Part shown: positions 7,244 to 58,705 of the stretch, piece by piece
How positions within the stretch are numbered: position 1 is the first letter of the stretch
Layout: each line of letters starts with the position of its first letter
From: Azolla caroliniana
Taxonomy: Eukaryota > Plantae > Polypodiophyta
DNA length: 64,000 nucleotides
Direction: 5' to 3'
Assembly: GCA_043228905.1 (NCBI GenBank)
Contig: JBHGNT010000003.1
Span: 9,672,001 to 9,736,000 of the forward strand
Made by a program: the position numbers and the translations under genes
The notes under the pieces: model-generated
Told to the model about the DNA's origin: nothing
The model's input: the letters and a program-made list of their open reading frames with translations, nothing else
Database searches by the model: none

Positions 7244-7696
7244 TAACAATCGGCAACAGTTTAGTTTGGTCTGAGAGTGTCCAAACCGAACCGTTTAAAA
7301 TTTTGAAACTTGAACCACGAAACCGTTAAATCGAAATGTTTAAAAAAATCCAATCCATTAAAATCGTGGTTTTTTGGTTCAATTTCAGTTTTCAACTTAG
7401 CTCAAATTTAAAATTTAAAATTTTATAAATTTTATATTTCATTATTTAAAATTTTAAAATTTTAAAATTTTAAAGATTTTCTTAAAATGTCAGAATAAGG
7501 CTTGAAAATGAAAAGATTGTTTTTAAAAAACAATTTAATTTAAAAAAAAACAGTTAACCGTTTAAACCGTGGTTTCTAATTGTTGAAACTGAACCGAACC
7601 GTTTAAAAAACCCAGAACTTAAACCGAACATTTTAAATAGTTAAGCTATGGTTTCGCCATTTGGTTTGGTTCAAACCGAACCATTGCCGACTGTTA
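7244..7696. mobile_element. hAT-type MITE, TAACAATCGGCAA family copy 1
   Basis: TIR TAACAATCGGCAA / TTGCCGACTGTTA; perfect 8-bp TSD GTAGTGTA; AACCG subterminal repeats. Confidence 0.9.
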
Positions 7697-12340: not shown

Positions 12341-12829
12341 TAACAATCGGCAATGGTTCGGTTCGGTTCAAGACCTGAACCGAACCGAACCACAAGACCG
12401 TTAAACTGAAACTGTTTAAACCGAACCATTAGGTAAAAATCCAAACCATTTTACCATTAAACCGCTAAAACCATGGTTTCGTGGTTCGGTTTCGGTTTTC
12501 AACTTATGTAAAAATTCAATTCAAAATTTTTCATTATTTCAAATTTTAATTTTTCAAAATTTTAAAGAATTTTCCTAAAATGTGAGAATTAGGCTTAAAA
12601 ATGAATAGGTTGTTTAATAATATTTTAAAAAAACATCAAGCCGTTAAACTGTTTAAACTGTGGTTTTGAATCGTTAAAACCGAATTGAACTGAACCGTTC
12701 ACCCCCCAAACCGAACCAAACCAAAACTGAATCGTTTAAAAAAACCTAAACCTTAACCAAACCATTAAACCGTTAGGTCGCAGTTGTCGTGGTTCGATTT
12801 GGTTCAAACCGAACCGTTGCCGATTGTTA
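12341..12829. mobile_element. hAT-type MITE, TAACAATCGGCAA family copy 2
   Basis: TIR TAACAATCGGCAA / TTGCCGATTGTTA; perfect TSD ATCATCCC. Confidence 0.92.
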
Positions 12830-13439
12830 ATCATCCCCGAACTCAATAGCCTCATCTTCTACAAGAAACACATCCAAAGTCAATGCAAAGACACATCGAG
12901 GTTCATGGACAGACAATACATATCATAAAGGTGTGCCCTGTTGTTGATGCTCACGTTGCTCTACTACTTTGTCAAACAATACACCCACAAGTACTCTTAC
13001 AAAACGTCTATTAGCAAAACATCATATTACTAACACATCTCAATCACATAGTTCCAATATTATGAATCCGGTGTTTGTGAACCAATACCATTTAGATACA
13101 TCTAAGCTATTAATATCTATTGCATTGGCACCAAAGCATTCCCAACCTCAATATTGTCTTCTAACAGCCTCTTACTCATGATTTCATTGTGACTGTCTAT
13201 GCCTATCAACCACTCCTACACTGCCACCTTGAAACTCAGAGATGTTTTGAGTTGTAGTACAACCAACTCTATTATTGTTGCAAATTTCATTGATGGTATG
13301 ATTATTATAGATGATTGGAACCACATACAAGCAATGGAACAATGGTTTGTTTCTACCTATTAGAATCATTGGTGATTTAAGTGGGTCAAACTACCCACTC
13401 TCTCAAAAGCTTACCTTGCTTGCAAAGTGTTGGTAACAC

Positions 13440-14956: not shown

Positions 14957-15472
14957 TAACAATCGGCAATGGTTCAGTTCGGTTCGAGAGGATCCAAACC
15001 AAACCGGTTTAGAACTGAACCGTTTAAATTTTTTGAAACCTGAACCGAACCGAACCGAACTGCGAAAGCGTTAAACCCAACCGTTAAACCATTAAACCAG
15101 AAAAACTGCGGTTTCGTGGTTCGGTTTCGATTTTCAACATAGGTCAAATTTTTTATTTTTTAAAATTTATAATATTTCATTATTTAGAATTTTTAGAATT
15201 TTTTAGATGATCCTAAAATGTGAGAATAAGGTGTAAAAATGAAAAGATTGTTTAAAAACAAATTTTAAAATTTTTTTATAAAAATTTTAAAAAATAAAAA
15301 ATAAAAACCGTTAAACCGTTTAAACTACGGTTCTTTACTATTGAAACCAAACCGAACCGTTTAAAAAAACCTAAACTTGAACTGAACTGAACCGAACCGT
15401 TGAAACTATTAAGCCGTTAAACCACGATTTCGCGGTTCGGTTCGGTTCAAACCGAACTGTTGCCGATTGTTA
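14957..15472. mobile_element. hAT-type MITE, TAACAATCGGCAA family copy 3
   Basis: TIRs as in copies 1-2; degenerate TSD ACGGTACG / ACAATACG. Confidence 0.88.
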
Positions 15473-15957
15473 ACAATACGGAACGTTCGGAACGGGACGC
15501 ACGGAACGGTCGGACACGCGGATCGGTGGGGATGGTCGAGACGTGCAAATCGGCCAAACTGTTCGGAATAGTCAGGCGATTTGTAGAACACGGGCCGTAA
15601 CTGGACATGGAGGCCATGCAACTAAAGTAAACGTTATGTGGGACGACCATACCGATCATGCACGGGCCGAATTGTACGGATGATAGGATCATGCGGCCGA
15701 ATTGTAAGGACAGTCATGTGTGGGACAAGTAAAGGTCATGTGGATGCATGCAACTCAACTGGAGAGACAAACTAGAGTTCCTTCATGCAAGTGCGAGTGG
15801 TAACATGCAATTGAAGTGGGAAAAAAGAAAGGCCCAAAATCTGAAGGGAGAGAGCAATTTTTTTTCTCATAGAGGGGAAGGAAAAATCTATCACGGAAAA
15901 CCCTAACCCTAACTTTTCTTATTGAAGGGTTATCACTCAAAAACCCTAATTTTTCTT

Positions 15958-17848: not shown

Positions 17849-18657
17849 TGTCGTGGAAATCTGCGACTTGTGGTGTCGTGCCTTTCGGCACCAGATCATT
17901 GCGTGAGTTGGGAGGGAACCACCGAGGTTTTGGACTAGGAGAAGGAAGAATTTGAGACAGATCTAGTTATGAATAGATTATAAAAGAGAGATATGAAACT
18001 TGTGAATCCCATGAATATAATGCATTTTATCAATCAATATTTAGAGAAGAATATGAATTTAGAAGAGAATGAAAAACAAAGAATGAAGTGCGCTGTCGTG
18101 AAGAAAACCGTCCACAAGCGGAATCGGCGCACCGGAGCATAGGAGCCGGCTCTCCATACACGTACGCCTTATGTTGTACATAGAAGATCCTAGGTAGGTA
18201 GATTCGGTAGGTAGGAAGTTAATGGGAAACGGCTCCTTCCTTGCATATAAAAGGAGGGAGATGAGGAGGGGAGGGGGATCGCGGAAAACAGAGAGGACGA
18301 AGTGCTGTCGGGTTGTCGGTCGAAGGCTTCTCTCTCTTCCATACTCTCCGTAGCTTCTTCCTGTGCAGGTTTCGGGAGGCTCGCGCTGCTCTGAGGAATG
18401 CCCGAGTGCTTCCGGCAGCACCTCCAACCTACTCCTTTCCTTCTGAGCGTTTGCGAACAGGCATCGGCATCTGTTCGCCGGCCTGTTCGGTTGTAACCGA
18501 CTTCGTGCTTCTTGTTGTTTGTCTTTGTTAATATATACTTACATACCTTTGTGCCTCTCTGTGTTGGTTTCCCCCGCTCGCGTCTTCGTGTCGAAGGGCC
18601 GTGCCCCTGTGGATCTACGCTCGCACGTAGTGGGTCCCTTCCCTTCTCCTTTCCCTA

Positions 18658-22465: not shown

Positions 22466-23302
22466 GAAAGCGGGACTTTGCATTGCATTAAATGATACTT
22501 GGTTGGGTTCCTTCTTGCATTATGGAGTCTTGACATGTGGTTGAGGTCAATATGTAATTTTTCAAATAGGATTGAAAAAGTGGGGTCTCATGAATATTTA
22601 TGCATCGAACCATGCAAGAGATTGAGAGATATTATAGAAAAACATACTTTCACAAGTACCTAGTGTGGACCATTGGGCGACTTCTAGGATTTCTTGTTTA
22701 AAATGTCAGGATGGCTCTTATACCACTTATCCTAGTCAGCGTCAAATAGCCTCGAGTTATTATGAAAATTTGTTGAAGGCTAGATCCTTTTCTAGAGATG
22801 ATTTGTTTAAACGGGATATTGTATGGTCAAGGATTCAAAGCCTCAAGAGACTCTGAAAGCGACAAAGACCTTAGCAAAGGATGTTTGTCCTGGATTGGAT
22901 GGGTTGGGGGTTCAATGGTATATAAAGTATTGGGATCTGATGTCAGGAGTAGTACTAAGACAGAGAAGTACTGTCAGGAACCGTACTAAAACAAAGAAGG
23001 AATTAGTACTAAAAGATGAGGATTGGTACTAAGGGAGGTGTAGAACTCTCGAGAGGAGAGAGAGAGAGAGAGCGAGAGAATGAGGATAACAAAAGATATA
23101 TTTTATGTTAAGGGAATATACTATAGTAGTTAGGAGGCTTAAGACTGGTGTTGAACCGATTTGGTTCGAAATAATGCCTTGTGCATCCTTTTATAGTGTT
23201 CTCAAGAGTACTCCTGAAGTTTCTAGAATATTCCAGAGAAATCTGGAATAGACATCAATTTTCTATAGTAAAACCTAAATGAAAATAATATTCTTAGTAT
23301 TA

Positions 23303-23379
23303 CAACATATGGTCTAATGGTCAAGAGTTCGACCCATGTAACATAAGGTCATGGGTTCGAGACTTGCCATATCATGACA
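23303..23379 (+). promoter_or_regulatory. tRNA-like Pol III A-box/B-box module at the U3 end of the LTR (also 27082-27158, 36295-36371)
   Basis: A box TGGTCTAATGG 23310-20, AGGTC variable-loop-like motif, B box GGTTCGAGAC 23354-63, tRNA-like spacing. Confidence 0.6.
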
Positions 23380-23399
23380 CTATCCCCCCTTTAAAACGA

Positions 23400-26300
23400 C
23401 GAGTGTCACGAGTCGTTTTGGATTGAGGACCCGGTTTGTCTGGATATTGACGATGGAAGTCTTCAAGAAGAGCACGAGAATTGGTCACATTCTCTATTGG
23501 TTCCCAAGTACGCTCGTTGGGACTATATCCTAGCCAATCGACTAAATAGTAGAGCTTGTTGGGAACAATCTTGGAATCGAGGATGGCGGCAACCTCATAC
23601 TCAGGTCCATCTTCAAGCTCGATCGGGGGTGGAGGTTGTTTAATACAACTTGGGATGGTGATGTCTTAATAGGGTTCGACGAGAGAACTATAAAACACCG
23701 GATGTATCCGAAGTTGTGGAGGTAGATCAAGACGAAAAGCGACATCATTAATTTTTCCAATAATATGGAAAGGACCTAATCACTGATAATCTAGCTTCTC
23801 GCATGGATGAGTAGTCTCGATGTGTCGTCGTAGTAGCCACACCCGATCTCCAATGTCACAGCTGGATGGAAGCCGATGACGATCCGCATAAACCTTGTAT
23901 GTTTGTAGAGCTTGTTGTAGATGAGTAGATAAATCCGTTTGTATCTTGTGTAGCCGCTCCAAACGATCCTCTGCACGAGGATTTGTGGGTAACTCTGGGG
24001 TTTCAAATACACACCACCGGTGGTAATAGCCTGTGTAAGCATAAAATGGTGTCACCTTTGTCGATGAGTGGACAGAGTTATTATATGAAAATTCGGCGAA
24101 GTGGAGAATATACGCCCAGTCATCTTGATGATAGCTTAAAAAGCACCGAAGATACTGCTCCACCGAACAAAATCTTCGACAAATTGTCGCATATGGGGCC
24201 ACCAGAAGGATCGTTGTACTAAATCTAGTGTTTTAGTACTACCAAAATGCCCAATTGTATATGTGTCATGATAGTTTTGGCGACAAGTACCATTAGGAAC
24301 ATACAAGTGTTTCTTAAAGAATAGTAATCCATCATGACATTCGAATTGTCGATAGTCCGTATCTGGTTGTTGCGAATGTGAACAAGATGCTCGAGAGGGA
24401 TCAATTTGTGCTAGAATTGCTTGAGCGAAAACATTTTTCTTCAAGTCCTCACGTATGCTATCGATAACGTGGGAATCCAAGGGCATACCGAAGACCTGCA
24501 TTGCTTGCAATCGTGCCGGTCCCAAGATTACTTGCTTTTGGTTATCGAAAGTTGGCTCGCCGGGACACGGTGCTAGATACGAACGTCGTGATAATGCATT
24601 TGCCTTCCCTTGTTGCTTTCCCGAACAATATGTAATTTTGAGGTTAAAACGAGTGAGGAATTGGGCCCATCGAGCTTGATGTCGATTTAACACACGAGCA
24701 TTTTGAAAGTAGGCAAGGTTTTTGTGATCACTGAATACGATGACTTGATGAGAAGACCCCTCTAGAAAATGCCTCGATTGCGTAAAAGAGTCCACTATTG
24801 CTAATAGCTCCTTATCATGAATTTCATAGTTGATTTCCGTGGCATCAAACTTGCGTGAATGGAAAGCCATAGGATGTAGCTTTTCATCATCGCATTGTTG
24901 AGACAGAATATTACCCAAGGCGAAATCCAACGCGTCTGCTTCAATGATGAATGGTTTTTCTGGATCGACATGAGCTAAAATAGGAGTTAATGTAAATGTC
25001 GTCTTAAGACTCTCAAAATCAATGTCCGCTTCTTCAGACCAAACGAATAATTTTCCCTTCCTGGTAAGTTGTGTGAGAGGCAGAACAAGCTTCGAGTAAT
25101 CCTGTATGAACTTGCGGTAAAAATTGGCAAAGCTTAAAAAGCATTGCACATCTCACAACGAACGCGGAGTTTGCCACTCTACCACCGTTTTGACCTTAGC
25201 TGGATCCATGGAGATGCCTTCCGAGGAAATCACATAGCCCAAAAATTCTACCTAGTTGCACCCGAAACTACATTTTTCCAGTTTTGCATAAAGACCATGT
25301 TCTCGAAGTCGTTTTAGTACTAACAATACATGAGAATCATGCTCTTCTTGGGTCTTCAAATAAACCAGTAGATCATCCAAATAGATGATCAAAAAATCAT
25401 CCAAGAGATCTCGGAATATATCATTTGCCATGTGTTGGAAGACTGTTGGCGCATTAGTGAGGCCAAATGGCATGATTGTATACTCAAAGTGCCCATATCT
25501 AGTGCAAAACACAATCTTCCATTTATCTCTTGGTCGGATCCGTACGAGGTTATATGCTCCTCGTAAGTCGATCTTTGTGAAGAACCTTGCACCATTGATC
25601 CGTTCTAAAAGACTTGAGATAAGAGGAAGTGCATACCTATTCCTGATGGTGACTTTATTCAACCCACGGTAATCTACAACGAGATGAAGTGATCCATCTT
25701 TTTTCTTGACAAAGAAAATGGGTGCACCATTTGGAGATTTCGAATGTCGAATGAAACCATTTGCCAAATTCTCCTCTATATAGGCTTGAAGGACTTCTAT
25801 CTCAGTTGGTGACAAATTGTAGATCGGTCCCCATGGTGGCTCTTTTCCCGGTTGTAAATCAATGGGGCAATCATACGGTCGATGGTGAGGAAGCGTATTA
25901 GCTCGTACTTTATCGAACACATCAACATAATGACGATACTTCTCTGGAAGTTGAACGATGGACTCCTCTTTATTGATACTAGAGGGGTTTATTGATATTG
26001 CGAAAAGAAACATTTCTTCCTTGTGTCCTTCCTCACGGAACTGATGTTGTTCTAACACCGAGGCTGGCCGCTCACCTTGGCGCAATCCTCAGATTTTGTT
26101 GATTGTTGTTCTAACACTGTCGGTATCTCCAAAACAAGCTTTAAACTCGGTAATAAACTCTTCGAAATTATTTAACAAGGGAGAGCTTTTTTCTAACAAG
26201 GAGGCAAACCATGCCAGCGTCGTGCCACTAAGTAGAGTGCCTACTAGTCCCACTCGTGATGCATCAATGGGATATCGACAAGGATGCATTTGAATGACTA

Positions 26301-26616
26301 ATCGTACCTGATTAAGGAATCCTCTGAACTGCGATCGTGTTCCATCGAATTTCATGGGAAGACCGATCTTGGGTTCTTTATGAATCCCTTGCATACTGGG
26401 TCCTTGTTGTTGCATCACTACTAAGGTTGCTTCGAGTTGTTGCACACGTACCACTAGTTCCCCATGTTGTTGTTGCGCCTGCTGCTTTTCTAAGGAGATT
26501 TGTTGAAGATCCCCCAACAACCGTTGATTTTCTTGTTCCAAAGCAAGGAACTTCTCTTTCAAGCATTGCAGCTCTGAGAAAACGGATTGATATTCTTGAG
26601 CGCTAACAATGGCCAT
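23400..26616 (-). pseudogene. gag-pol remnant of gypsy copy 1 (protease and integrase core deleted)
   Basis: ORFs 26089-26616, 25252-26085, 24136-25149, 23780-24202 align with the more complete copy 2. Confidence 0.9.
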
Positions 26617-29600
26617 AGTATGAGAGAAAAGAGGAATAAGATATTAGTATGAAGGGAGGGAGAAGTAAGAAGATAAAGGAAGAGAAGGAAGGAGAGACAA
26701 ATCGGTTCAAACTGTTAGGAGCAGTACTAAGACAGAGAAGTATTGTTAGGAACAGTACTAAAACAGAGAAGGAATTAGTACTAAAAGATGAGGATTAGTA
26801 CTAAGGGAGGTGTAGAACTCTCGAGAGAAGGAGAGAGAGAGTGAGAGAGAGTGAGAGAATGAAGATAACAAAAGATATATATTATGTTAAGGGAATATAC
26901 AATAGTAGCTAGGAGGCTTAAGACTGGCGTTGAACCGATTTGGTTCGAAATAATGCCTTGTGCCTCCTTTTATAGTGTTCTTCGGAGTACTCCTGAAGTT
27001 TCTAGAATGTTCCAGAGAAATCTAGAATATACATCAATTTTCTATAGTAAAACCTAAATGAAAATAATATCCTTCGTATTACAACATATAGTCTAATGGT
27101 CAAGAGCTTGGCCCATGTAACATAAGGTCATGGGTTCGAGTCTTGCCATATCATGACATTTGATAGGTGAGGGAGTGATCAAAGCTTATCAACAAATTTT
27201 AGATTCTGGAAATATGCCACAAGATTGGAATGAGGGGTTAATATATATGATTCCCAAATCAAGTGGCCAGTTAGAGGAGCTTCAAAATTGGAGACCAATT
27301 ACTCCGTTGAATGTTATCTATAAGATATTAGCAAAAACGGTAGCTAGACGTCTACAACCTTACCTTTCTGAGTTAATTCATGTTTCCCAAACTGGTTTTA
27401 TGCAAGAATGGAGTATTTTTTATAATATTATTCTTTTTTGGGAAATGGTTGCCTTCGCTGAACTACATAAGCAAGATTTGGCAGTGTTATTTCTTGAGTT
27501 TGAGAAAGCTTATGACAGAGTGGATTGAGATTTTATGGAGGGTACTTTGCTCAGGATGGGTTTTCCAAATCGATGGATCCGAGGAGTTTCAACACTATAT
27601 CGTAATGCACACAACTCTCTTCTATTTGCAGAGGATGTTGGTAGGCGTTTCTCTATTTCAAGATCTGTAAGATAGGGATGTCCACTTGCTGCTTTTCTGT
27701 TTCTACTAGTTTCTGAAGCGTTTTCTGTACATTTAAATTCTCATAATGTAAATATCAAAGGTTTAGCAATACCATTTGTAGATGTTGGCGTGGTTAGTGA
27801 GTTTGATGATGATACAACTCTCTATGTTCAAGCCTCACAAGTTAATTTGTTCCAGGTTCAAAAGGTTGTGGATGACTTCTCACATGCATCGGGTGCCTTG
27901 ATTAATTGGGATAAATCATCAAGTTTTTGGGTGGCTGAGGGAGATCCGCTAATTAATGTATTTAGTTCAGGATTTACGTGGATACAAACAGGTCATTCTA
28001 TTAGGTATCTAGGATGTAGAGTGGGTTTGGGATTAAATGCAGAAGATATGATAGCGCCTTTGTTGTTAAGATTAAGAAATAACTTAATATACTGGAATAA
28101 GGAAAAGTTGTCCTTAGCAGGACGTGTAGTTGCTGCAAATTCGATGCTTTTGTCCTCGATTTGGTATATTGCATCGACATGGTTGTTTTCTAGGTTAGTA
28201 ATGCTTAAAGTTCAACATCTAGTACGAAATTTTATTTGGGGGAATGCTAATTCACACACTCTTGTAGCAAAGGTCGCTTGGTCAGTTCTTATACAGTTTA
28301 AACAGAAAGGAGGTTTAGGTTTGATTGATCCCTTAATGCAAAGTAAGGCATTACTGTCTAAACATGTTGTTAGAAGTTTATTTCCTGGAGAGAAGTTATG
28401 GAAAAAGTTATGGATTCTTCATTTACATAAGTTTAAGCCATCGGTAGGTGGTCAATGGAGGGATAGTCTTAGATGGTTCTTCAATTCGTATTTTCCTTTA
28501 CCTAAGTCGTCTGTTGGGTCTTTACGGTTCTTTAATGGAATTAGTCATGCATGGGAAAGTATTGGTCAAGCATTTGTTTTCTTGCCACCAAAAACTCGTT
28601 CTCAATTCATGCGTCAACCATTGTTATGGAATCCTTTATTTACTGATGAAGTTGCATGTGTTTTGGGTTTACGGCCTAGGTTATCTTGGGCAACATTGGA
28701 TAGTGGCCCTGCCCGTACAGTTGTGGAGTGGCTAAATTTTTCGGAGACTTCAATGCAGGACCAGAGGAATAGGTTGTCTAATTTAAGAGGGGCAAATATT
28801 ATGTTCTCTCAAGTGACCACGGTATTTCAGGTAACAATGCCAACTATGCAGTTTGACCATTTTCAGAATTGGTATGGTATGTTTTCACTCTTAATATACT
28901 TATAGGAGCTCATTTACACCATCAAAATGGCAACCTTTATTTTTATGAAGTTCTGGATAATGGTAGACTGTTTTTTGTGGAGGAGGAGGCTCCAATTATG
29001 TCTTCTGCAAATCAGTTACCAGTGCGAGTAATTGCTCGATTAGATAAAAAGATCTTTATAGATCCTAATCCCTTAATTGCTAAATATTCATCTCATATTT
29101 GGGTTTTACAATCTAGGCCAATTGCTGATTTGCATTGGGATTTGTCTGATTATGGTTGGAAGTTGTCCAGATCTGACACTTCGCAAACGAAGGTCCTCCC
29201 ATTCTTCACATATTCTGTGGCGTTTGGAAGGAATTTTCTTTTGAATCAGAGTGAATCGGTACCTGCGGGGAAAAAATATTGGGAGGAAGGTAATGTGTCA
29301 TCCTCGCATATGTTGAAGTTCTGGAAACAATTTTGGTCACTTAAGTGTATGAATAAGGTATTACATTTTCGATGGTTCACGATTCATTATGCCTTGCCAA
29401 TAGGAGGTTTATTGAGGGGAACAATGCCTGATAGATCATGTGTTATGTGTGGGTTTGCAGTTGACACATTGCATCATGTTTTTTGGGAATGTGTTGCGGC
29501 CAAAAGTTTTTTGGTTTTGAATTCTTAGGTTATTAGGTCGTAAGTATAGGTCAGCCATTTTCACGTGAGGTGCAGTATTCTAGGGAATGTTGGATCAGCA

Positions 29601-30089
29601 AAAGGTTTTTTATCATTATCATAATTCTTCATTGACTTTACAGGTAAAAAGTTTTCAGGTGTACTCTATTTCAACCTCCGTACTGGGAATCAAGTTCTTC
29701 TCACGGTGTTATGTTTGGCAGATTGTTTCCTCTTTGGCCCTATGGGTTTTGTGGAAAGGGAGATGTTCCAAACTATACAATGATGAACAAATTCATGTTG
29801 TGGATCAGGTTAAGAACTTTTGGGAATTAGTGATACATATAGTAAAAGGCGAGTATGATAGTTATAAGGGTTATGGAAATAAAGCTAACCGGAAAAGAAG
29901 AAGAATTCACAGAGTTTGCGCAATTATTCCTATTTTGTTGGATGCAGGTGATGATGTTGAGTGGAATCATGTTCCACCTCATTGGTTGTTTCTGCCACCA
30001 GCACCGTTCTTAGTGTAGACAACATGGAATTTGGTGAAAATGGCGTTGTTGTGGAATTATTTTGAAGCATATTTAGTTATTGTAACTTT

Positions 30090-31140
30090 TAGAACGATGA
30101 ATGAAGATGGGGACGGAGGCAAATACAAATTTTCATGATGGTCTGAGGAGTGTGTATATACAGGAAAGTACTGAAAATGGAGAGGATTTTGATGGAAAAT
30201 GGTGAGATGCTTTGATGTGGAAGTTTTTTTAAAGCAGACTTATTTATTTTCAATTTTTAGAATGATGAGTGAAGATGGTGGTGGAGGCAGAAGCAAGGTT
30301 TCATGAGGGTTTGAGGAGAGTGGATTCATTTTGGTCTTCTTTTTGTAGGTACAGAACTCGGGCGATGAATGGCAAGATGGTTGTAGTGGAAAATGAAGCT
30401 GATTTATTTTGAAAGGATGAGTGAAGATGGTGGCGGAGGCGGAAGCAAGGTTTCATGAGGGTTTGAGGAGAGTGCATTCATTCTGGTTTTTGTAGGTACA
30501 GGAATCAGGCGATGAATGACAAGATGGTTGTAGTGGAAAATGAAGCTGATTTAATTTTGGAAGGATGAGTGAAGATGGTGGTGGAGGTAGAAGCAAGGTT
30601 TCATGAGGGTTTCAAGAGAGTGGATTCATTCTGGTTTTTGTAGGTACAGGACTCGAGTGATGAATGGCAAGAGGATCTGGATGCAAAATGGAGAGATAGT
30701 TGATGTGGAAGTTTTTGAAACAGTCTTATTTACTTTCAGTTTTCGGATTGATGAGTGAAGATGGTGGCGAAGGTAGAAGCATGGTTTTATGAGGGTGAGG
30801 AGAGTGGATTAATCCTGTTATGTGTATGTACAGGAAATTGTTGAAAATAGAAAGATGCAAGACTTGGGCAATGACTGGCAAGTTGGATGTTGTGGAAAAG
30901 GAAGCTGATTTATTTTTGAAAGGATGAGTGAGGATGTTGTCAAGGGTTGAAGCAAAATGTCATGAGTGGATGAGGACAACTAATTTTTTCTTTGTTATCT
31001 ATATAGGAATTTCATGGAAAATGGAGAGATGGCTTATGTGGAAATATTTTGAAGCACATTTATTTGTTTTTAGTTTATACAACGATGAGCGAAGACAGTG
31101 GCGGAGGCAAAAGCAAATTTGCATGAGGGTCTGAGGAGAT
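30090..31140 (+). repeat. Degenerate tandem array (~150-185-bp unit x ~7) in LINE 3'UTR
   Basis: Core GATGAGTGAAGATGGTGGCGGAGGCAGAAGCAAGGTTTCATGAGGGTTTGAGGAG at ~30096, 30263, 30417, 30564, 30750, 30922, 31085. Confidence 0.85.
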
Positions 31141-31559
31141 TGGATTGAGTAGAGAACCAATATTTTCATATGGTAGGTTCATCTGGATCATTTGGATATG
31201 ATGAACTCTTACACGTAGCAGCGATCAAGGAATCATTGTAAAAGAAGATATATCACTACTATCATGAACAATACTAAGACAGAGAAGGAATTAGTACTAA
31301 ACGAAGGATTAGTACTATGAGAGGTGTGGAACTTCTTCGAGAGAAGGAAGAAGTGAGCGAGAGAGAGAGAGAGAGTGATGATAAGAAAGATATGTACTAT
31401 ATGAAGAGAATATACAATGGTGGCTAAAAGGCTTAAGACTGGCGTTGAACCAATTTGGTTCAACATAATGCCTAGTGCCCTCTTTTATAGTGTTTTCAGG
31501 AGTAATCCTGAAAGCTTCTAGAATGTTCCAGAGAAATCTGGAATATACACTAATTTTCT

Positions 31560-34500
31560 ATAATAATACGGAAAGGACCTAATTGCCGATAATCTAACTT
31601 CTCACATGGACGAGTAGTCTTGATGTGTTGTCGTAGCAGCCACACCCGATCTCCAATATTAAAACTGGATGGAAGTCGATGACGATCCGCGTAGACCTTG
31701 TGTGTTTGTTGAGCTTGCTGGAGATGAGTAGATAAATCCGCTTGTATCTTGCGTAACTGCTCCAAACGATCCTCCGCGCACGGATTTGTGGACACCTCTA
31801 GGGTTTCAAGTACACTCCACCGGGGGTGACATCACGTATAAGCATAAAATGACGTAACTTTAGTGGATGCGTGGATAGAGTTGTTATAGGTAAATTCGGC
31901 GAAGTGGAGAATATCTGCCCAGTCATCTTGATGATAGCTAAGAAAGCACCGTAGGTATTGCTCCAACGTTTGATTTGTTCGTTCAGCTTGGCCGTCGGTT
32001 TGTGAGTGGTAGCCGGAGGAGAGGTTACAAGTGACCTTGAGCATGTTAAAAAGGTGCTTCCAGAATTTTGACACGAACTGGGGTCCACGATCATTGATGA
32101 TACTATCGGGAAGTCCATGATGCCGACATACTTCACGCATGACAATTTCGGCAGTGTCTTCACTAGAGATCTCTTTAGTACATGGCAAGAAATGAGCCAT
32201 CTTCGTATATCGATCAACCACCGTTAGAATCGCATTGAACCCCTTAGAGACTGGAAGATCTGTGATGAAGTCTAGAGCAATGGATTGCCACGGCTTGCTT
32301 GGAATTGGTAATGGTTCTAATAAACCATATGGATGATGCCTTGGCATTTTCGCTCTGCAACATGTATCACAAGTCCGAACAAAATCCTCGACAAATTGTC
32401 GCATACAGGGCCACCAGAATGTTCGTTGTACTAAATGTAATGTTTTAGTACTACCAAAATGCCCAGTTGTATATGTGTCATGACAGTTTTGTACTACTCG
32501 AAGGCGGCAAGAACCATTAGGAACATACAAAAGTTCTTTAAAGAAGAGTAATCCATCATGGTATTTGAATTGCCGATAGTCCGTACCTGGTGGTTGCGAC
32601 TGTGAACACGACACTCGAGAGGGATCAATTTGTGCTAGTATAGCTTGGGCGAACGCATCTATCTTCAAGTCTTCACGTATGGTATCGATAACGTGGGAAT
32701 CCATAGGCATGTCAAAGATCTGTGTTGCTTGTAGTCGTGCCAGTCCCAAGATGACTTGTTTTTGGTTATCGAAAGCTGGCTCGCCGAGACGGGGTGCTAG
32801 ATAAGAACGCCGTGATAATGCATCTGCCTTCCCTTGGTGCCTCCCCGGACGATATGTAATTTTGAAGTCGAAACGCGTGAGGAAGTGGGCCCACCGAGCT
32901 TGACATCGATTCAACACACCAGCATCCTAAAAGTAGGCAAGATTCTTGTGGTCACTAAATACGGTGACTGGATGAGAGGATCCCTCCAAAAAATGCCTCC
33001 ATTGCATAAAAGAATCCACTATTGCCAATAGCTCCTTATCATGAATTTCGTAGTTGATATCGGCGGCGTCAAACTTGTGTGAGTGAAAAGCCACGGGATG
33101 TAGCTTCTCATCATTCCCCTGTTGTGACAGAATGCTCCCCAATGCAAAATCCGATGCGTCAGCTTCGATAATGAATGGTTTTTCCGGATCGACATGAGCT
33201 AGAATTGGAGCCGATGTAAATGCCTTTTTAAGACTCTCGAAAGCCATGTCCGTTTCTTCAGACCAGATGAACGGTTGTCCCTTCCTGGTAAGTTGTGTGA
33301 GAGGTAGAACGATCTTTGAGTAATCTTGTATGAACTTCCGGTAAAAATTGGCAAAGCCTAAGAAGCATTGCACATCCCGCACCGAACGCGGAGTCTGCCA
33401 TTCTACCACCATTTTGACCTTAGCTGGGTCCATGGAGATGCCTTCTGACGAAATGATGTAGCCGAGAAATTCCACTTGGTTGCACCCGAAACTACATTTT
33501 TCCAGCTTTGCATACAGACCATGTTCTCGAAGTCGTTTTAGTACTAATAGTACATGAGAATCATGTTCTTCTTGGGTCTTTGAATAAACCAGTAGATCAT
33601 CCAAATAGATGATCAAACAATCATCCAATAGATCTCGGAATATATCATTAGCCATGTGCTGGAAGACTGTCGGCGCATTAGTGAGGCCGAACGGCATGAC
33701 CGTATACTCGAAGTGCCCATATCTGGTGCGAAACGCGGTCTTCCATTCGTCTCCTAGTCGGATCCGTACGAGGTTATATGCTCCCCGTAAGTCGATCTTC
33801 GTGAAGAACCTGGTACCATTGATCCGTTCTAAAAGACTTGAGATAAGGGGAAGAGCATACTTATTCCTGATTGTAACCTTATTCAAGCCACGATAATCTA
33901 CAACGAGACGAAGCGATCCATCTTTTTTTTTTGACGAAGAAAATGGGTGCGCCGGCTGGAGATTTCGAATGCCGAATGAAACCATTTTCCAAATTCTCCT
34001 CTATATAGGCCCGAAGGACTTCCAGCTCGGTTGGTGACAAATTGTAGATCGGTCCCCATGGCGGCTCTTTTCCCAGTTGTAAATCGATGGGGCAATCGTA
34101 CGGTCGATGATGAGGAAGTGTGTTGGCTTGTACTTTATCGAACACATAGGTGTAATGACGATACTTCTCGGGAAGTTGAACGGTGAATTCTTCTTTAGTG
34201 GTGCTGGAGGGGTTTACTAATATTGCAAAGAGGAACATTTCCTCCTTGCGCCCTTCTTTACGCAACTGACGTAGCGAAATGGTTGCCATCTTCTGAGTTG
34301 ACCCTTGGGTTTGTCGACACCGGATTTCTCTTGTTCTCCAATCTATGTTTGGGTTATGTAACTCGAACCACGGTAATCCTAAAACTATAGGATGTTCTGG
34401 GATACTAATAATATTAAATGATACTACACATGCTAAGTTATCTAGGACAATATTAATGGGCTCTGACTCTTCTATGATATTTCCGGAAGCAATGGGACGT

Positions 34501-34772
34501 CCATCAATGACTACTACAGAGGCTGGACACTGGAGTTTTCTTAGGGATATCTTATGAGCTTGAGCAAATTTCTTATCCATAAAGCAAGAATTAGCTCCGG
34601 AATCTAGGAGTGTTAGGACATGTACTGGAGGGGTACTTTTAGTACTAACTATTACTTGGGCTACGAACACATCACTAACTTGCTTAGAGGGAATGGAACC
34701 ACTAATGGGCTGCACAGATCTAGGGTTGTCCAACCAAACGGCTCCTATTTTGGCTGGACTTAGTCGTTTAAC
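31560..34772 (-). pseudogene. pol of gypsy copy 2 (PR-RT-RH-IN), -1 frame to gag
   Basis: LLDSGA protease, YLDDLL RT, EADASD RNase H, HHCC plus DFITDLP..DRGPQF..DGQAER integrase; frameshift in A-run near 33925 and stop at 32927. Confidence 0.92.
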
Positions 34773-35896
34773 TCTTCTTCTAACTGACTAAGGACATCAA
34801 ATTTATTTGCTAGATCTGGGATATTAGTACTATTAGGACTATCAGATATCCCTACTGAAATAGGTTCGGATTTAGTACAATTAGAAATAGCGACTATTTG
34901 GTTTACCTGTCTTCTTGGCCTATGGGAGCAATTTATTGCGATATGTCCCGGTCCACCTCAGTAAAGACATAGTCGATTTGTACGGCGTCGCTGCTTTTCT
35001 TCTTCGGATAATGGCCCTCGATGACGTATCGGAGTCGGAGTATTCACTGGAGGCGCATTATATGACTCCCTCGGAAAAGGTCTTGCTACCACTGAGACGT
35101 AGGTGGGCTCTGATCTTGCCCTCGGCATCTGTAGATGTCGTTTCGAATGTCGCTCAAAGAGGCGGTTGTCACATCTCACCGCGCGACTGATTGCTTCTGT
35201 TAAGGACTTTGGCTCTTCGGGGAAGGTCAATAGTAAATCCTTGACGTCGTTGCGTAAACCATAACGGAATTGCTCCACCAACGCTTGATCATCCCAAGGG
35301 ATATCAGCGGCGAGTAGGCGAAAATCTGCAGCGTATGCGGAGGCTGGACGGTCACCTTCGCGTAATCGCCGGATTTTGTTGATTGCGGTCCTGATGCTGT
35401 CAGTATCTCCGAAACATGCTTTAAACTCACCTAGAAACTCTTCAAAATTGTTGAGTAACGGAGATTCCTTTTCTAATAGTGGAGCGAACCATGACAACGC
35501 TGAGCCACTTAACAAAGTGCCTACTAAACCCACTCGTGATACATCGGTGGGATATCGGGAAGGATGCATTTGAATAACTAATCGTACCTGGTTAAGGAAC
35601 CCTCTAAACTGCGATCGCGTTCCATCGAACTTCGTGGGAAGGCCAATCTTGGGTTCTTTATGAATCCCTTGTGTTCCGGGCCCTTGTTGTTGCATCGCTA
35701 CGATGGTTGCTTCGAGTTGTTGCACGCGTAACGCAAGTTCCCCATGTTGTTGTTGCGTTTGCTGCTTTTCTAAGGAGATTTGCTGAAGATCCCCCAGCAA
35801 CCGTTGGTTTTCTTGTTCCAAAGCATGGAACTTCTCCTTCAAGCATTGAAATTCCGAGAAAACAGATTGATATTCTTCAGCGCTAACAATGGCCAT
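34760..35896 (-). pseudogene. gag of gypsy copy 2 (PEG10/sushi-like capsid; CCHC knuckle with Cys->TGA)
   Basis: PTKFDGTRSQFRGFLNQVRL, LREGDRPASAYAADF, CLY*GGPGHIAINC; natural stop TAA at 34762-34760. Confidence 0.88.
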
Positions 35897-36074
35897 GGGA
35901 TGAAAGAAAAGAGGAATAAAAGATTAGTAGGAAATGAGAGAGACAAAAGGTAGGGAAAATTGGTTCAAACTGTCATGAACAGTACTGAGACAGAGAAGGA
36001 ATTAGTACTAAACGAAGGATTAGTACTATGAGAGGTGTGGAACTTCTTCGAGAGAAGGAAGAAGTGAGCGAGAC

Positions 36075-36119
<45 letters not shown>

Positions 36120-36906
36120 GTGAGTGAGTGATGATAAGAAAGATATGTACTATATGAAGAGAATATACAATGGTGGCTAAAAGGCTTAAGACTGGCGTTG
36201 AACCAATTTGGTTCAACATAATGCCTAGTGCCCTCTTTTATAGTGTTTTCAGGAGTAATCCTGAAGCTTCTAGAATCCTGAATCTTACGTATTACAATAG
36301 ATGATCTAATGGTCAAGAGCTCGACCCATATAACCTAAGGTCATGGGTTCGAGTCTTGCCATATCATGACAACTACATGTTGAATACGATGGAATTGATG
36401 TTAGGGGCTTTGGCATGGCATCAACATTATTTGGTGATATGGAAGCTGGTACGGCAACAATATTACTTAGGGGTAAGTTCACCGATATTATCTTGTATCT
36501 TGCCTTTATCTTTATCTAGAAAGATTGGTTGCACAATATTCATTGTAATGTTGGATTGTCTTGTATCTTGCCTTTGGCTACTTTAATCTTAATACTAATG
36601 GAGGATAATTTTTATGGAAAAAAAAAGAATATGAATTTAGATTAAAAGAGAAGGATATCGAAACTCATGAATCCCACAAGTAGGGATCTGCAACATCTCG
36701 GCTCAAGCCTAAACTGTTAGGCTTAACCGGTTTTAAACGGCTTAAGGGCTCGGCTCGGCTCAACTCAGCTTAGGTTTGAGCATGACTAAACGGTTTGAGC
36801 TCGGTTCGTCTTGGCTTGAACCTTGCCAAACCGGCTCAAACCGGTTAAGTCGTTTAGAAAGTTTAGAGAGGGAGGGAGACAACACGCAAGTGGAGAGAGA
36901 GAGAGA

Positions 36907-37280: not shown

Positions 37281-38144
37281 GACTACACAGAGGAGAGAGA
37301 CAAAGGGAGACCACACAGACATGAGAGAGAGAGTGGGAGGGAGAGAGGGGGAGAGAGACAGAGACAGAGGGAGGGAGGGAGCTTGTACAATGTATACTAC
37401 ATAGTGGATCGTTTGAGAGAGGGGGGGGGGGGGGGGGGGGGTGTTATGGGTATGACCATTTAATATCCCGTGGTAAGAATTTACCGTAGTATTCTATACA
37501 CGTGGATAAGTGTGAGGGTTAAACGAGAGTGTAAAGAAGGGGAGGATTACTTTTAATCCTCGGGATTGAGATAACCCATTAGGTCAAGTGTGAACTTGCC
37601 TGGGGGCCTTGGGTATCGCTATAAATAAGAGGCCTAGCTACCCTCATTTCATCATCTTTTGACTACATCGAGACTCTGCTCGTGTGGTGGGTCAACTCTT
37701 GTAGCGAGCGCGCCAGCACCAGGTATGACTCGACGCCACGGCGGTGGTATGGGACGCCGATCGAGGCTCGAGTTCGTCTCGATCCCTTCGCTCGGGGGTG
37801 GTCGGGTGGATCGTCACCCTTCTTTCTCTTTCTCCTTTCTATCTATTATTACTTTATCCTTATCTTAAGCTTACTTTAGTACTTAGATCTATAATATTTG
37901 GTATCAGAGCTACGTACTAATGTTTCTTTGTTTTTCATTTGTCTTTTGATTGATGTTGATCGATCAATGTGCGGTCGGCCTTGATCCAGACAACGATCAA
38001 CAAAGAACTTCGGTAACTCTTTCCATAATTTTTCTTTCTATTCTCTCTTCTCCCATCTAATCATGTGTTTAGTTTATATGTAATTTTTTTCATTAAGTCA
38101 ATGATGCTGTAGTGGTCTTCAATTGATTATCTAAAACGTTTACA

Positions 38145-38407
38145 TATGTGCACGAGGTCAATACCTCGTTTGACATATTAATAATATGTGATGAGTGTCG
38201 TATGCGTACGAGGTTAATACCTCAATTACGTATTACGTTCACGAACATATGTTACGTTTGCGTATGGGTTTAATACCTTGATTTGTTGTAAACAATATGC
38301 GGTTGGTCTTGTATGCGTAAGAGGTCAATACCTCAATTGCATATTATGATGATCTCTTATTTGAGGATGTTTCGTGTGCGTAGTGGTATATACCTCGATT
38401 ACGTATC
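38145..38407 (+). repeat. Five-unit hairpin repeat array in the chromovirus 5' leader
   Basis: GAGGT-YAAT-ACCTC-type cores at 38152, 38208, 38264, 38319, 38381. Confidence 0.75.
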
Positions 38408-39586
38408 TCGATCATATCATTTGTGGCTATTTAATATAAACGATATGTTTAATATAGGCATATGTGGTCACATGTATATGTATTTGATCGTATATATGTG
38501 ATAAGTAAACATATGTGTATATTCGTTATTACGTGATTATATCGAAAGTTATCCTTGTCGGGAAAAGGATGTTGGTGGCCGTCCTCACATTTTTGTGAGA
38601 ATGGCGTTGTCACCATCCCTTTTTCAACATTTTTTTATTGTTGATAACCCCATTGACGACCTCGATTTCGTTACGTAAAGAAACGCCAATAGCCATAATG
38701 ATGTTGAGTACGTAGGGCTTGACCCGCTTCAAGTGAGGTCGCTCCAATGACGCACGTATCCAACATCCCTCCCTCGTTACATGGATACGATGCCACCATG
38801 AGCTCGTTCTTACGAGAGGCATTCGTAATGACGTGACCATGTGATGGCCCATGTGAGCCTACTACGAAACGAGGGCTCATTTGGCTTGACCATTAGGTTG
38901 CACTTTGGCGTATGCCATCGTAATTACGAGGCTTGAGGTTAGGTAACGTACCAACATAGTTTTGGTAGATGAGGGCGAAATAAGGACCCTCGACATATAT
39001 GTTCTTTTAAAAAAAACATATATGATCAATTGCCTCGCATATCTCTTATACGCATCAAACATTAAGCATTCGAGAAGAGCAACTTACTTGGTTGGCTCAA
39101 GTGTTTAATGTGTTTGTTCTCAAGGTCTCGAGTTCAAATATGACCAAGACCATACAACATCCTTGATACATATGAGTATAACACATGTTTAGACTTAAGG
39201 TCTAAGTGCACCTCAGGGTCCTCGTAATAGGACTTAAAGAGCCGAAACCACATGTGTGGGCACCAAAACATAGTTTATTATTAACATTTTTTTCGTGTAT
39301 AAACAATTCATGACGCGAACATACATGGTTGAGCCTTGGGGAGCCACCATGAAAAAATCGATATAGAGATCAGGGAAAGACATTTATTTGTCACCCCCAT
39401 GGTTTTTAAAACACCTTTGTGTTACCATAGTAACCTGATCTTGAACCTCATCTCATACGTCTAGAGGGGTATTGACGTGAGATAATGATATCGATTAATG
39501 CTCGCCCATGATATGTTTACATCACGACATGATGTTATGATTATATCTCTGACCTTGTCCTATTTCTTTTCCAGAAATAATCTTTA

Positions 39587-44020: not shown

Positions 44021-46221
44021 CCATATAATATCCCGTGGTAAGAATTTACCGTAGTATTCTATACACGTGGATAAGTGCGAGGGTTAAACGAGAGTGTAAA
44101 GAAGGGGAGGATTACTTTTAATCCTCGGGATTGAAACAACCCATTAGGTCAAGTGTGAACTTGCCTAGGGGCCTTGGGTATCGCTATAAATAAGAGGCCT
44201 AGCTACCCTCATTTGATCATCTTTTGACTACATCGAGACTCTGCTCGTGTGGTGGGTCAACTCTTGTAGCGAGCGCGCCAGCACCAGGTACGACTCGACG
44301 CCACGGCGGTGGTATGGGACGCCGATCGAGGCTCGAGTCCGTCTCGATCCCTTCGCTCGGGGGTGGTCGGGTGGATCGGCACCCTTCTTTCTCTTTCTCC
44401 TTTCTATCTATTATTACTTTATCCTTATCTTAAGCTTACTTTAGTACTTAGATCTATAATAGGGGGGGGGGGGGGGGGGGGAGGGAGGTTTCCAAACCGG
44501 TTTTCAAGCCGATTTGGAAACTGGTTTCTAAGTCGTTTATCAAACGGTTCACAAACCAGTTTAGGATCAGTTTGGTTCAGGTTTAAGAACCCCAAAACGG
44601 TTTAGGCTTAACCAGTTTGGCTTGGATAAGGCCAAACCAACTAAGCCTAAACTTAATCGTTGTCGATCCCTACCCACAAGCATAGTTTATTAGTTTTCTT
44701 AATATTTAAAACCCTAATAAATTAGAAATAGATTGGAAGAGAGAGATATAGAAAACTTATGAATACCACAAGTATAATGTATTTTATTAATCATTATTTT
44801 TGAACCCTAATGATTTTTTCACCCATAATTTTCTCCCCCAATTACATTGTGCTCCCCACCCTTATATAGTGATGGGAGAGGCTTAGCAATCCATGTTTTT
44901 TCTAACTATAAACTTTATGCTTTTTCTAACCTCATGCGTTTTTTTTATCAACTATAGCATGCTAGATGCGCATATGTAGTAGCTTTTTTTCTATCATGCG
45001 TTTTCTTCTAACTAACTTTTTCCTAGAAAATATGCATGAAATAACATTTCTATGTGGGACATCTACCTTTTTTAACACTCATAATGTGTTCGTGTAATGG
45101 TAAGGCTTTAAATTATTAACATGGTGGTATAGGATTTGAATATTACCCTATGCATGTAATGCATATTTTAATTTTTTCTTCTTTTTCTTCATATTTATTC
45201 AATCGGTTATTTTATACGTTTTTCACGTAGTTTAGGAACTACAATACGACAACAAGTTGGGTCAGCGAGACCACCGGGGTCTCGAACCAAGGAAAAAGGT
45301 GACAAGAGAACTAAGCTTTGTCGGTATCAACTACCACGACTGGGGCTTTGGCCTAGTCATCATCTCTTTGTGTCGGCTGCTTGTCAACTTCGTCTGCCTG
45401 GTCAATCGATCCAGATTGACTCTTGGGCATTCATATGGGCATGTAGTCCCCAACCAGCACCTTGTAACCATATTGGCTCCCTCTTGACTATGATGATGTG
45501 TTGAATACGAGGTCAAGGGAGAGAAGAGAACACACATTCACTAAATCCGATAAGAAGAGAAAGAACAACAACACATTTAACATAGATACAATGCATTATG
45601 TATAACTATATGTATATATAAACGACAGATTACATATGGGACATCGAGCTGAACCACAACGAACTAGGTACGACGAATATCCTTTGGCGAGCCTCTAGTC
45701 GAGGAGCTCTCTGACTCATGGCTACGAGTGGAGGCCTCGCTTAGCGGTCAGACCAGAAACTACCAAAATCTTGAGAGCGTTCAAGCTCTAAAAACCTAGA
45801 GAACAAAATCCTATCTTTCTCTCTCTTTTAGGTTTTAGTCCCCTCTAGGGGTTTAAAGGGGGGGGGGGGGTGTGGGTAAAAAGAGTTGCTTTATAGACCA
45901 ATGAGGGAGGACCATTACAAAAGGGGGGGCAAAAAATATTCCTTTCTTTTCAATGATATTTGCCTTGATTTTAGGAGTGATTGGAGTGGTACATTAAAAC
46001 CCCTCTCACTTTCACATTTACCCCACTACCCACTATATGTGCATGTGCACTAATGTACACATCACATTTACTCCTCAATAACTCTTTTGTCCATTTCAGC
46101 ACCCTTACATTTTCCCTTATTCTCTTTTATTCCTATGTACATTTTCTCATGTGCAAGTCGTTGCACATCCTCGTTTTATTCGCCATACCCGATTTTCTCA
46201 CCCTTGCCAGAAATCTTCACA

Positions 46222-57291: not shown

Positions 57292-58179
57292 TGACTTCTT
57301 CTATTATGAGAGGGTAAATAGTTGAGGTTGACCCAAGACACGGCACAAACAGTAGCGCAAGTGAGAAACCCACGCGATCCCCACCAAGAAAGTGAGCGGT
57401 TGTGACCCCCACCGAAACTAGAAGGTGAGCGATCAAAATCGGTCCTCGCCTACAGAAAGTGGCGCGAGACTTGAACTATAACGAAAATGCAGTGCAAGCG
57501 AGCAATGATTCGATCCCCACCAGGAAAGTGAGCAACTGTAACCCCTACTGGAACTGGGAAGGTGAGTGATCGATAGCACTCCTCACCCAAACCGTGATGC
57601 GAAATGATACCTTAAAATGATGACAAGTAGTGTTGATGACGACGATGGTTGGGCGAAGAGGTGGTGCTCCCAATTGGAGGGGATTCAAACTGTCACAAAC
57701 ACACCAAGTGCGAACTAGGACGGAGCAAAGATGATGGGGCTACGAGCGACAGATGAACTTGGAGCTAGATGTGACGAGGCTAGGAACTCTAGATGTTGTG
57801 AGCAGTATGAAGACATAAATAAAGATCAAGGAGACAAAGATGAGGCGAAACGAGAATACTATATTGATGTGTCAATGACTAGTGTTGAATCCCCTAAAAG
57901 GGACCAAGGAGGTTACAAGTATTTATACAATTTTCGAGATTGAATATCTCTAGAATATACTCAATAAATATCTTGAGAATATGCCCATTTAGAATATACC
58001 AAAGAATAATTCTAGAATATACTAACGATTAGAATATTCTTGAATATACTATACTAGACTCTACTATATATACAAGTTCACAATCGAATATGGACAGTTC
58101 ACAAGAGTTTTCATATGGTTAACACAACACAATGTATTGCGTGTGTTAAAAGTCAGAGGTTCGAGTCTAGAATGTGACA
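57292..58179 (-). mobile_element. Truncated gypsy-like element, second self-priming family: LTR 57691-58179 plus leader
   Basis: TGTCACA..TGTGACA LTR; TSD GCCGA/ACCGA splitting copia B gag (KKSES|ASTSRQ); internal ~60-bp direct repeat at ~57376 and ~57512. Confidence 0.7.
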
Positions 58180-58392: not shown

Positions 58393-58705
58393 TGTCGAAT
58401 ACGGGTGTCTAATGCCCGTATACACACTATCCCTTGGATATTTCTGTAAATATGTCAAAGGGCAGTTGCCCTAGCCTAGTTAGTATATAACGGGCTTTGT
58501 AACCTAGCTCATAAGGTTGTTGCCTCCATTTGTTGTAACTCATATTTCGAATAATACAGTTACATCTTGTGTGCCTCTCTGTCTATCGATCTCTCTTGTT
58601 TCTCTCGCACGCTTTCTCTCTTATCTTGTTATATCTTGCTAACTTGGTGATCTTCATCTCAAGGTGTTGTTTATGTTTCCGCACTAATGGTCTCAGTCTC
58701 CAACA
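58393..58705 (+). mobile_element. Solo LTR (313 bp)
   Basis: TGTCG..CAACA; perfect TSD ATTGG; TATATAA near 58485. Confidence 0.85.

Follow-up and report, generated by a model that had tools for sequence, protein, structure and literature searches.

Sequence derived from tRNA has been described in both LTRs of Helenus (TRIMp3; Kojima, 2024; PMC10886601). According to the accessible parts of that paper, boxes A and B are where conservation is centred, a functional tRNA is absent and the use of Pol III was inferred. Helenus elements are non-autonomous, 311-1263 bp long and tRNA-primed; their tRNA part is thought to drive their own RNA, and in four LTRs from Selaginella and a wasp it lies in sense orientation in mid-LTR. 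The accessible text also states that a partial likeness to a tRNA is found in 'not a few LTRs' of Repbase, that only TRIMs were followed, and that autonomous counterparts must use Pol II (PMC10886601). The Cassandra TRIM likewise has a Pol III promoter inside a plant LTR; as far as the available sections of the two sources go, this promoter is 5S-derived, of type 1 and in sense, the terminator is conserved and the element is non-coding (PMC10886601, PMC12786077). Pol III units are also found in the U3 of an autonomous, Pol II-transcribed retroelement, simian foamy virus, whose cassettes are described in the accessible part of the source as having terminators and stem-loops and yielding miRNAs (PMC3993851). 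In yeasts, tRNA genes and B boxes act as TFIIIC-dependent heterochromatin barriers; these are host loci with tested function, and the ETC sites among them are described, in the parts available, as lacking TFIIIB and Pol III (PMC4502379, PMC12409998). Finally, Tcn1 chromoviruses such as SM-Tcn1 combine a group I chromodomain, self-priming, an LTR of ~440 bp and a non-seed plant host; they have been reported from mosses and clubmosses, and the accessible text mentions no tRNA-like LTR part (PMC2864245, PMC6317226, PMC3350952).

The window analyzed here, a DNA stretch of 64,000 nucleotides, is repeat-rich plant DNA with nested retrotransposons. It contains two copies, E1 and E2, of a Tcn1-like chromovirus family with an A box, AGGTC and a B box in the first ~75 bp of U3. 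Compared with Helenus, E1-type elements code for gag-pol and are self-priming, with a PBS complementary over 11-13 nt to their own R start and not to a tRNA; module-bearing chromoviruses keep a Pol II TATA box, and the module lies at the U3 edge, antisense in 28/28 LTRs (sense 0/35). Unlike the foamy virus cassettes it is tRNA-shaped and outward-facing, and neither a terminator nor a fold is conserved. As in the yeast barriers, TFIIIC-type boxes lie at a domain border and a similar mode of action is proposed, whereas in comparison with ETC sites the module retains an A box and an AT-rich patch and rides on a mobile element. The host is likely a fern and not, as assumed in the earlier note, a bryophyte, although the two matches of a lipase exon place it only weakly; a fern host would widen the range of Tcn1-like elements beyond mosses and clubmosses.

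The earlier note on this DNA knew of no description of such a feature. This was too broad, since tRNA-derived A/B boxes in LTRs (Helenus, PMC10886601) and retroviral U3 Pol III units (PMC3993851) have been published, as the accessible parts of these papers show. What stands is that a search of mostly open-access literature found no report of coding chromoviruses with a tRNA-type module lying antisense at the edge of U3; earlier annotation of such LTRs in Repbase may exist. The sequence profiles below point to a real, clade-wide selected feature, and to a Pol III-promoter-bearing LTR outside Helenus.

Two self-priming chromovirus copies and the module in their LTRs

E1 occupies 22941-27158 on the minus strand. 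Its 3' LTR (22941..23379, 439 bp, TG...CA) and 5' LTR (26713..27158, 446 bp), both on the minus strand, are 92% identical, and its flanks, TCTGA and TTTGA, form a near target-site duplication with 4/5 positions matching. The polypurine tract (PPT; 23380..23395, minus strand) is visible in the sequence and adjoins U3, a layout that is repeated in relatives; a Pol III transcript reading out of the 3' LTR would enter it antisense. The integrase ends in a C-terminal chromodomain (23375..23665, minus strand), which was recognized in translation (Pfam Chromo, E=5.7e-15), is of group I type with 3/3 aromatic-cage residues present, and has its stop codon inside the LTR start. The decayed gag-pol (gag, RT, RNase H and integrase; 24136..26643, minus strand; Pfam and ORF list) is damaged by stops, frameshifts and internal deletions. 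The self-priming PBS (26698..26710, minus strand) comprises 13 nt complementary to LTR nt 217-229. In the 5' LTR the Pol II TATA box lies at 26968-26974 and the predicted R start, which is the self-primer, at 26930-26942, 32 nt past the TATA box (both minus strand); the R-start motif is common to many families. An AT-rich patch at 27044..27073 on the plus strand, upstream of the A box, is the predicted seat of TFIIIB/TBP.

The second copy of the family, E2 (31257..36371, minus strand), has a truncated 3' LTR, and its PPT, chromodomain, U3 start and module there are all lost. Despite deletions the gag-pol-chromodomain elements span 4.2-5.1 kb. The family is present at very high depth in contigs from runs labelled with five organisms; an integrase query against viral and genome contigs gave no match. 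Named integrase homologues were fungal and vertebrate gypsy proteins (41-49%), as expected for the Tf1/Sushi group. The gypsy domain order, group I chromodomain and self-priming of E1 correspond to marks described for the Tcn1 clade (accessible parts of PMC6317226 and PMC3350952), and E1 is best described as Tcn1-like. As a separate observation, the R-start self-primer (26930-26950; homologues in L132-L169) is within a short inverted repeat and in many families contains a sense-strand match to the B-box consensus, a possible second TFIIIC site at the Pol II start.

The module described in the earlier note was present in all three LTRs, on the plus strand and thus antisense to the minus-strand elements. 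The A boxes are TGGTCTAATGG at 23310-23320 in the E1 3' LTR (0 mismatches to TRGYNNARYGG), TAGTCTAATGG at 27089-27099 in the E1 5' LTR and TGATCTAATGG at 36302-36312 in the E2 5' LTR. The corresponding B boxes lie at 23354-23363 (with AGGTC, 23346..23363), 27133-27142 (with AGGTC, 27125..27142) and 36346-36355 (AGGTC at 36338-36342), all on the plus strand. The reading of the B box as GGTTCGAGTC holds at 27133 and 36346, but the copy at 23303 has GGTTCGAGAC. The three LTRs had also been called intact, which is not the case for the one at 36295, where ~45 nt upstream of the A box are missing. In each of the three, the A box starts 44 nt before the B box, AGGTC starts 8 nt before the B box at the position of the tRNA variable loop, and the B box ends 16 nt from the LTR edge. 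This geometry would, within 1 nt, fit the copying of a primer tRNA right up to the end of the LTR; that origin was rejected, as the distance from the B box to the edge is 16-65 nt in other families.

Variation within the family was assessed on contigs of four runs, for 27052-27126 only, a range short of the B box, as the alignments stop at the LTR edge and differences near contig ends seem to be masked: a 61% variant at 27047 in one alignment is missing from the other. At least 6% variation was seen at 30 of the 75 assessable positions. Within the A box T8 and AATGG stayed below this level and the R, Y, N and N positions reached it, as did one fixed G (12% in one run).

Conservation of the module and its likeness to tRNA

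Relatives were fetched by the chromodomain that lies just before the 3' LTR, and the sample is therefore blind to the LTR itself. This gave 605 stretches with 508 relatives, the best 80 of which were used (47 from one assembly series with ERZ names, 33 from others). Those in which the start of the LTR could be located and was followed by at least 130 nt numbered 34 in the ERZ series and 24 among the others, and E1 was added to the former to give 35; the other 22 and four viral loci, which were short or had no clear LTR start, were dropped. A pair of A and B boxes was scored at three mismatches or fewer in all and a spacing of 42-46, within nt 1-130. Such a pair was found antisense in 28 of the 35 LTRs (34 of one assembly series and E1), as against 0/35 in sense, 0/33 on each strand of nt 131-260, 0/24 on each strand of the other relatives and 3/1050 shuffles. 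The positives come mostly from one assembly series; the 0/24 includes self-priming fungal and other chromodomain relatives, and the seven LTRs without the pair include that of L160, whose protein is almost identical to that of a positive.

The A-B spacing was 43-44 nt in 27/28. To remove the bias that the spacing limits introduce, LTRs were also anchored on the B box only, which was found in 30/35; the best A box over 25-70 nt then fell uniquely at 43-44 in 25/30 (chance ~0.09 per row), and AGGT was exact at B-8 in 25/30. While this spacing stays constant, the distance from the B box to the LTR edge ranges over 16-65 nt across families.

For comparison between families, 21 modules that were less than 80% alike were used (chromodomain identity to E1, 51-92%). 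Mean pairwise identity was 0.80 in the B box, 0.74 in the AGGT region, 0.63 in the A box and 0.52 just after it, and 0.33 in the spacer, 0.35-0.37 upstream and 0.34 downstream, with 0.28 for random sequence. The box values are inflated because the 21 families were picked by box match; AGGT and the bases after the A box are outside the consensus. A motif-blind alignment of 26 rows gave milder peaks, 0.45-0.56 around B and 0.40-0.46 around A, with values of mostly 0.13-0.43 further in. The four bases of AGGT before the B box occurred in 21, 19, 21 and 21 of 21 families, which is near invariance outside the textbook boxes. The CpG of the B box was kept as CG or as the consensus-allowed CA in 20/21 and was TG in one, in what are small numbers. 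The boxes are therefore far more conserved than the flanking U3 (21 families; 28/35 against controls), and the possibility that they are no more conserved than U3, which would have spoken against the feature, does not apply. The patch from A-45 to A-16 was 85% AT across the 21 families versus 62-73% in neighboring segments. As for the upstream elements typical of plant tRNA genes, a TATA-like sequence had no fixed position, and CAA occurred near +1 in only 9/21. A Pol II TATA box was found in 13 families, and in 11 of them it lay 114-212 nt further in.

Derivation of the outward-facing module at the U3 edge of these self-priming elements from a tRNA, as the earlier note had it, is supported by sequence profiles. 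The 18-mer AGGTCRTGGGTTCGAGTC, which comprises AGGTC and the B box, was found in at least 121 viral loci, and among the matches listed 100 are tRNAs according to ARAGORN. The 40 nt upstream of it, unused in the search, fit the profile of these tRNAs after a 1-nt shift (shuffle p of 0.011, 0.004 and 0.0002 for three copies that are not independent). With the same shift the E1/E2 family has TGT (Thr) in the anticodon slot; the spacer is not conserved across families. A sequence-only HMM profile was built from 22 unselected neighboring tRNAs without the 18-mer, and its top four matches in the 64 kb were at 36333 (E=0.00094), 27103 (0.0013), 23342 (0.12) and 58150 (0.27). Among the relatives it matched 18 of the 34 ERZ-series LTRs, all antisense within nt 11-90, and 0/24 of the others. 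Conversely, a matrix made from LTR modules scored 15 bits or more in 10 of 31 unselected tRNAs versus 0/310 shuffles, and it also found a true tRNA-Gln gene in L185.

A covariance-model match to tRNA was not obtained for the module. ARAGORN reported no tRNA at the modules at default or 85-95% threshold, nor in any of the 8 module-bearing loci tried, and Rfam gave no tRNA match at E<=10. An A/B module with 44-nt-type spacing, which is not an ARAGORN tRNA, was also seen outside the ERZ series at L173:2933 (minus strand); it is possibly a SINE or a Helenus-like piece.

In an integrase-end tree of 53 rows (6 were dropped for short coverage), 22 positives grouped in one starred clade with 26 members (98/94), and another 2 belonged to a separate clade, also starred, with 4 members (100/99). 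These two module-bearing clades were not joined with support, and at least seven changes are needed. The four negatives of the main clade are single tips amid positives, one of them near-identical in protein to a positive, a scatter that fits decay of dead copies; two further negatives belonged to the small clade of 4. One old gain followed by losses and a swap of the module between lineages are both possible histories: the module sits in two integrase clades that are not grouped with support, and may have moved between element lineages. It likely originated by antisense insertion of a tRNA or of the head of a tRNA-SINE just after the PPT.

Proposed function and rival explanations

The U3-edge module is very probably a selected, type-2 Pol III promoter-like element. 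The boxes and their spacing are kept, the fold and the 3' end are lost and an AT-rich seat lies inside, which is the pattern expected from selection for TFIIIC binding and TFIIIB loading. In plants, TFIIIB loading needs the A box and an AT-rich patch (PMC11346459, accessible part), and both are kept in the module. As it faces away from the element, the module cannot make genomic RNA. Its place at the outer border, about one nucleosome upstream of the Pol II TATA box, and a chromodomain of the H3K9me-binding type (group I chromodomains bind H3K9me2/3 according to the available text of PMC3350952) favor, as the most economical reading, a role as a barrier or in open chromatin. We give a probability of roughly 0.45 to the reading that the tRNA-derived, outward-facing A and B boxes bind TFIIIC, seat TFIIIB and act as a chromatin barrier for the Pol II promoter; the same figure applies to the barrier use as such, which is suggested by analogy with the yeast sites. 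The accessible literature on tDNA barriers yielded no barrier role of tDNA in plants.

According to the barrier model, TFIIIC would bind the B box and then the A box, and TFIIIB would take its seat on the AT-rich patch that lies between module and Pol II TATA box. The complex would keep nucleosomes sparse along the outer border of the 5' LTR. This could hold back H3K9me heterochromatin spreading in from the flank, where integration is predicted to be directed by the group I chromodomain. Any Pol III transcript at the 5' LTR would point away from the Pol II unit and be a by-product. Since both new LTRs receive a copy of the U3 from the 3' LTR, the module passes to each daughter element. Spacing this strict is expected only in part, as TFIIIC accepts 32-93 bp between A and B (PMC12409998, accessible part). 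The near-invariant AGGT is not explained by a pure TFIIIC model. In Alu, a similar pentamer precedes the B box at an identical offset, and this parallel, as a lead only, would place AGGT within an extended DNA site.

We tentatively suggest that an autonomous chromovirus clade of plants domesticated a tRNA gene as a portable insulator, with the chromodomain leading to heterochromatin and the outward TFIIIC/TFIIIB site keeping the Pol II promoter open. If true, a retrotransposon would carry its own site for the Pol III machinery and put it to a use other than RNA production. This would be the opposite of Ty1/Ty3, whose targets are host tRNA genes, and would provide an answer to how heterochromatin-targeting chromoviruses stay transcribed. 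Many extra TFIIIC sites that tRNA finders miss are predicted in such genomes. The elements would offer a natural, very high-copy and point-mutable test of plant tDNA/TFIIIC barriers, and if the insulator reading is true, thousands of LTRs would be ready-made TFIIIC sites shaping host chromatin.

The main rival to the barrier, which we consider rather unlikely, takes the module to be a true Pol III promoter that is useful for the antisense RNA it yields; made from 3' LTRs, this RNA would cover the PPT and chromodomain and could act as an siRNA seed or in copy-number damping. The promoter anatomy is complete (A box, B box and AT-rich patch), and foamy viruses produce Pol III small RNAs from U3 (PMC3993851, accessible part). 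Within the module body TTTT occurs in 1/21 families versus 4.5 expected, which is rarer than in shuffles (p=0.04), but this signal is weak because AAAA is about equally depleted (2 versus 5.4, p=0.06). In the E1/E2 family the module halves form one long hairpin, an imperfect inverted repeat with z of -2.9 to -4.6, which the earlier note did not record. A conserved hairpin was nevertheless rejected, as only 4/21 families fold with z < -2 and the median z is -0.4. A defined antisense small RNA is further weakened by the terminator, for which no conserved oligo-T was found: the first TTTT lies 1 to >800 nt after the B box across the 21 families, and a conserved terminator after the PPT was rejected, with T4 at edge+9/10 in 6/28. 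From 5' LTRs the transcript would enter unrelated host DNA.

In six of the 21 families (L132, L140, L144, L154, L156 and L163) the antisense strand is free of TTTT for 450 to ~900 nt after the B box, through the chromodomain, with a background median of 168 nt for a TTTT-free run; long antisense Pol III read-through is possible in these six.

The module could also be an integration aid, either as a self-made Pol III landing pad with Ty3-like targeting or as a TFIIIC tether of the cDNA end, which we hold to be improbable. Its distance from the U3 end is 16-65 nt, targeting of Pol III genes via TFIIIB/TFIIIC is described for several gypsy elements (PMC5911963, accessible part), and L175 carries insertions in the first nucleotides of a module-type LTR. 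A fixed landing pad is weakened by the heterogeneity of the LTR-edge flanks, whose agreement apart from the PPT is 0.38-0.49 among the matches listed from contigs of four runs. Moreover, E1, E2 and the insert of the second self-priming family do not lie beside a module in the window, and an intact integrase chromodomain is a targeting device of its own.

It is similarly doubtful that the module makes a tRNA-mimic RNA, in which elbow residues and the variable-loop AGGU would recruit tRNA-binding or tRNA-modifying enzymes without a classical cloverleaf. Such a role would be in line with the fixed A-B spacing and with AGGT being as conserved as the B box outside the consensus used. In addition, pairing is slightly better between cognate 5' and 3' halves than after permutation (p=0.005 overall; 0.07 for the D-arm 3' side with the B box), an excess that may stem from few families or from shared base composition. 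Against it, none of the four tRNA stems was kept, and a conserved cloverleaf was rejected: in the 21 families pairing was 0.57 versus 0.61 under column permutation for the T stem, 0.39 versus 0.35 for the acceptor, 0.43 versus 0.41 for the anticodon and 0.56 versus 0.55 for the D stem, while real tRNAs reached 0.79-0.97. The partial D-stem earlier noticed at the A box accordingly finds no support across families. The 3' end is not conserved either. As the stems are not paired above permutation, the constraint looks to be at the level of DNA.

A B-like motif unrelated to Pol III, as the arm of a palindrome or hairpin or as a mimic of the self-priming PBS, is very improbable. The self-primer often contains GGTTCAA, the R-start motif is B-box-like in many families and the module is an imperfect inverted repeat in the E1/E2 family; the hairpin, however, is family-specific, and the A box, AGGT and the 43-44 spacing are left unexplained. 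PBS mimicry in particular was rejected, since a full B box is present in families whose self-primer has no GGTTC (L142-L146 and the second family of the window). That the module is a neutral left-over from a SINE or tRNA inserted long ago, or matches by chance, would agree with its being missed by tRNA finders and lost in some copies, but is highly unlikely and largely refuted by boxes that persist where the identity of spacer and flanks has dropped nearly to the random level, and by the kept CpG (CG or CA in 20/21, small numbers).

Other sites in the window

The second self-priming family is represented by an LTR at 57690..58179 (minus strand), part of a truncated insert in a copia element and with an 11-nt PBS complement. 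The B box reported at the equivalent place was confirmed (58158-58167, 12 nt from the edge), but the A-like site is weak, with a spacing of 50 and not 44, and it adjoins an apparent short tandem duplication. The family has the R-start motif of E1 and self-priming, and probably represents a diverged relative rather than a separate origin. The truncated self-priming element as a whole covers 57293-58179 within the copia gag, with an apparent 5-bp duplication that has one mismatch. The copia element that holds it is also interrupted by a solo LTR near 58394-58708.

The A/B pair indicated at ~45089-45142 is real (45090..45142, plus strand, spacing 43), but decayed and 109 nt from the edge of its LTR. 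The pair, which ranked fourth among 127,876 window positions, lies in a TG...CA repeat (44660-45251) and has a better-kept homologue in L175 (72% over 120 nt). The repeat family (44660-45251, 17903-18064 and L175:1045-1775) combines a TATA box with an A/B pair 109-123 nt from the edge; no PPT, PBS or target-site duplication was seen in 44660-45251 and its homologues.

Two tRNA-Met-primed families of the window, a chromovirus and a copia, had no antisense A+B pair, the best candidates showing 5-6 mismatches; one tRNA-Met-primed LTR had a 3-mismatch match in sense deeper in. The tRNA-Met-primed chromovirus (37442-44461) has in its 5' UTR, at 39093-39140, a sense A-like/B-like pair with AGGTC and a spacing of 38, which may be due to chance or be a decayed SINE or LTR piece. 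Three related repeats of ~500 bp (7244-7696, 12341-12830 and 14957-15473) are rich in GGTTCGGTTC runs and are the source of many one-mismatch B-box matches. An array of about seven repeats of 150-185 bp occupies 30020-31150. Exons of a host lipase gene lie at 880-1131 and 6614-6952; the exon at 6680-6949 gave two matches among 55 candidates, both of them Adiantum fern proteins (68% and 49%).
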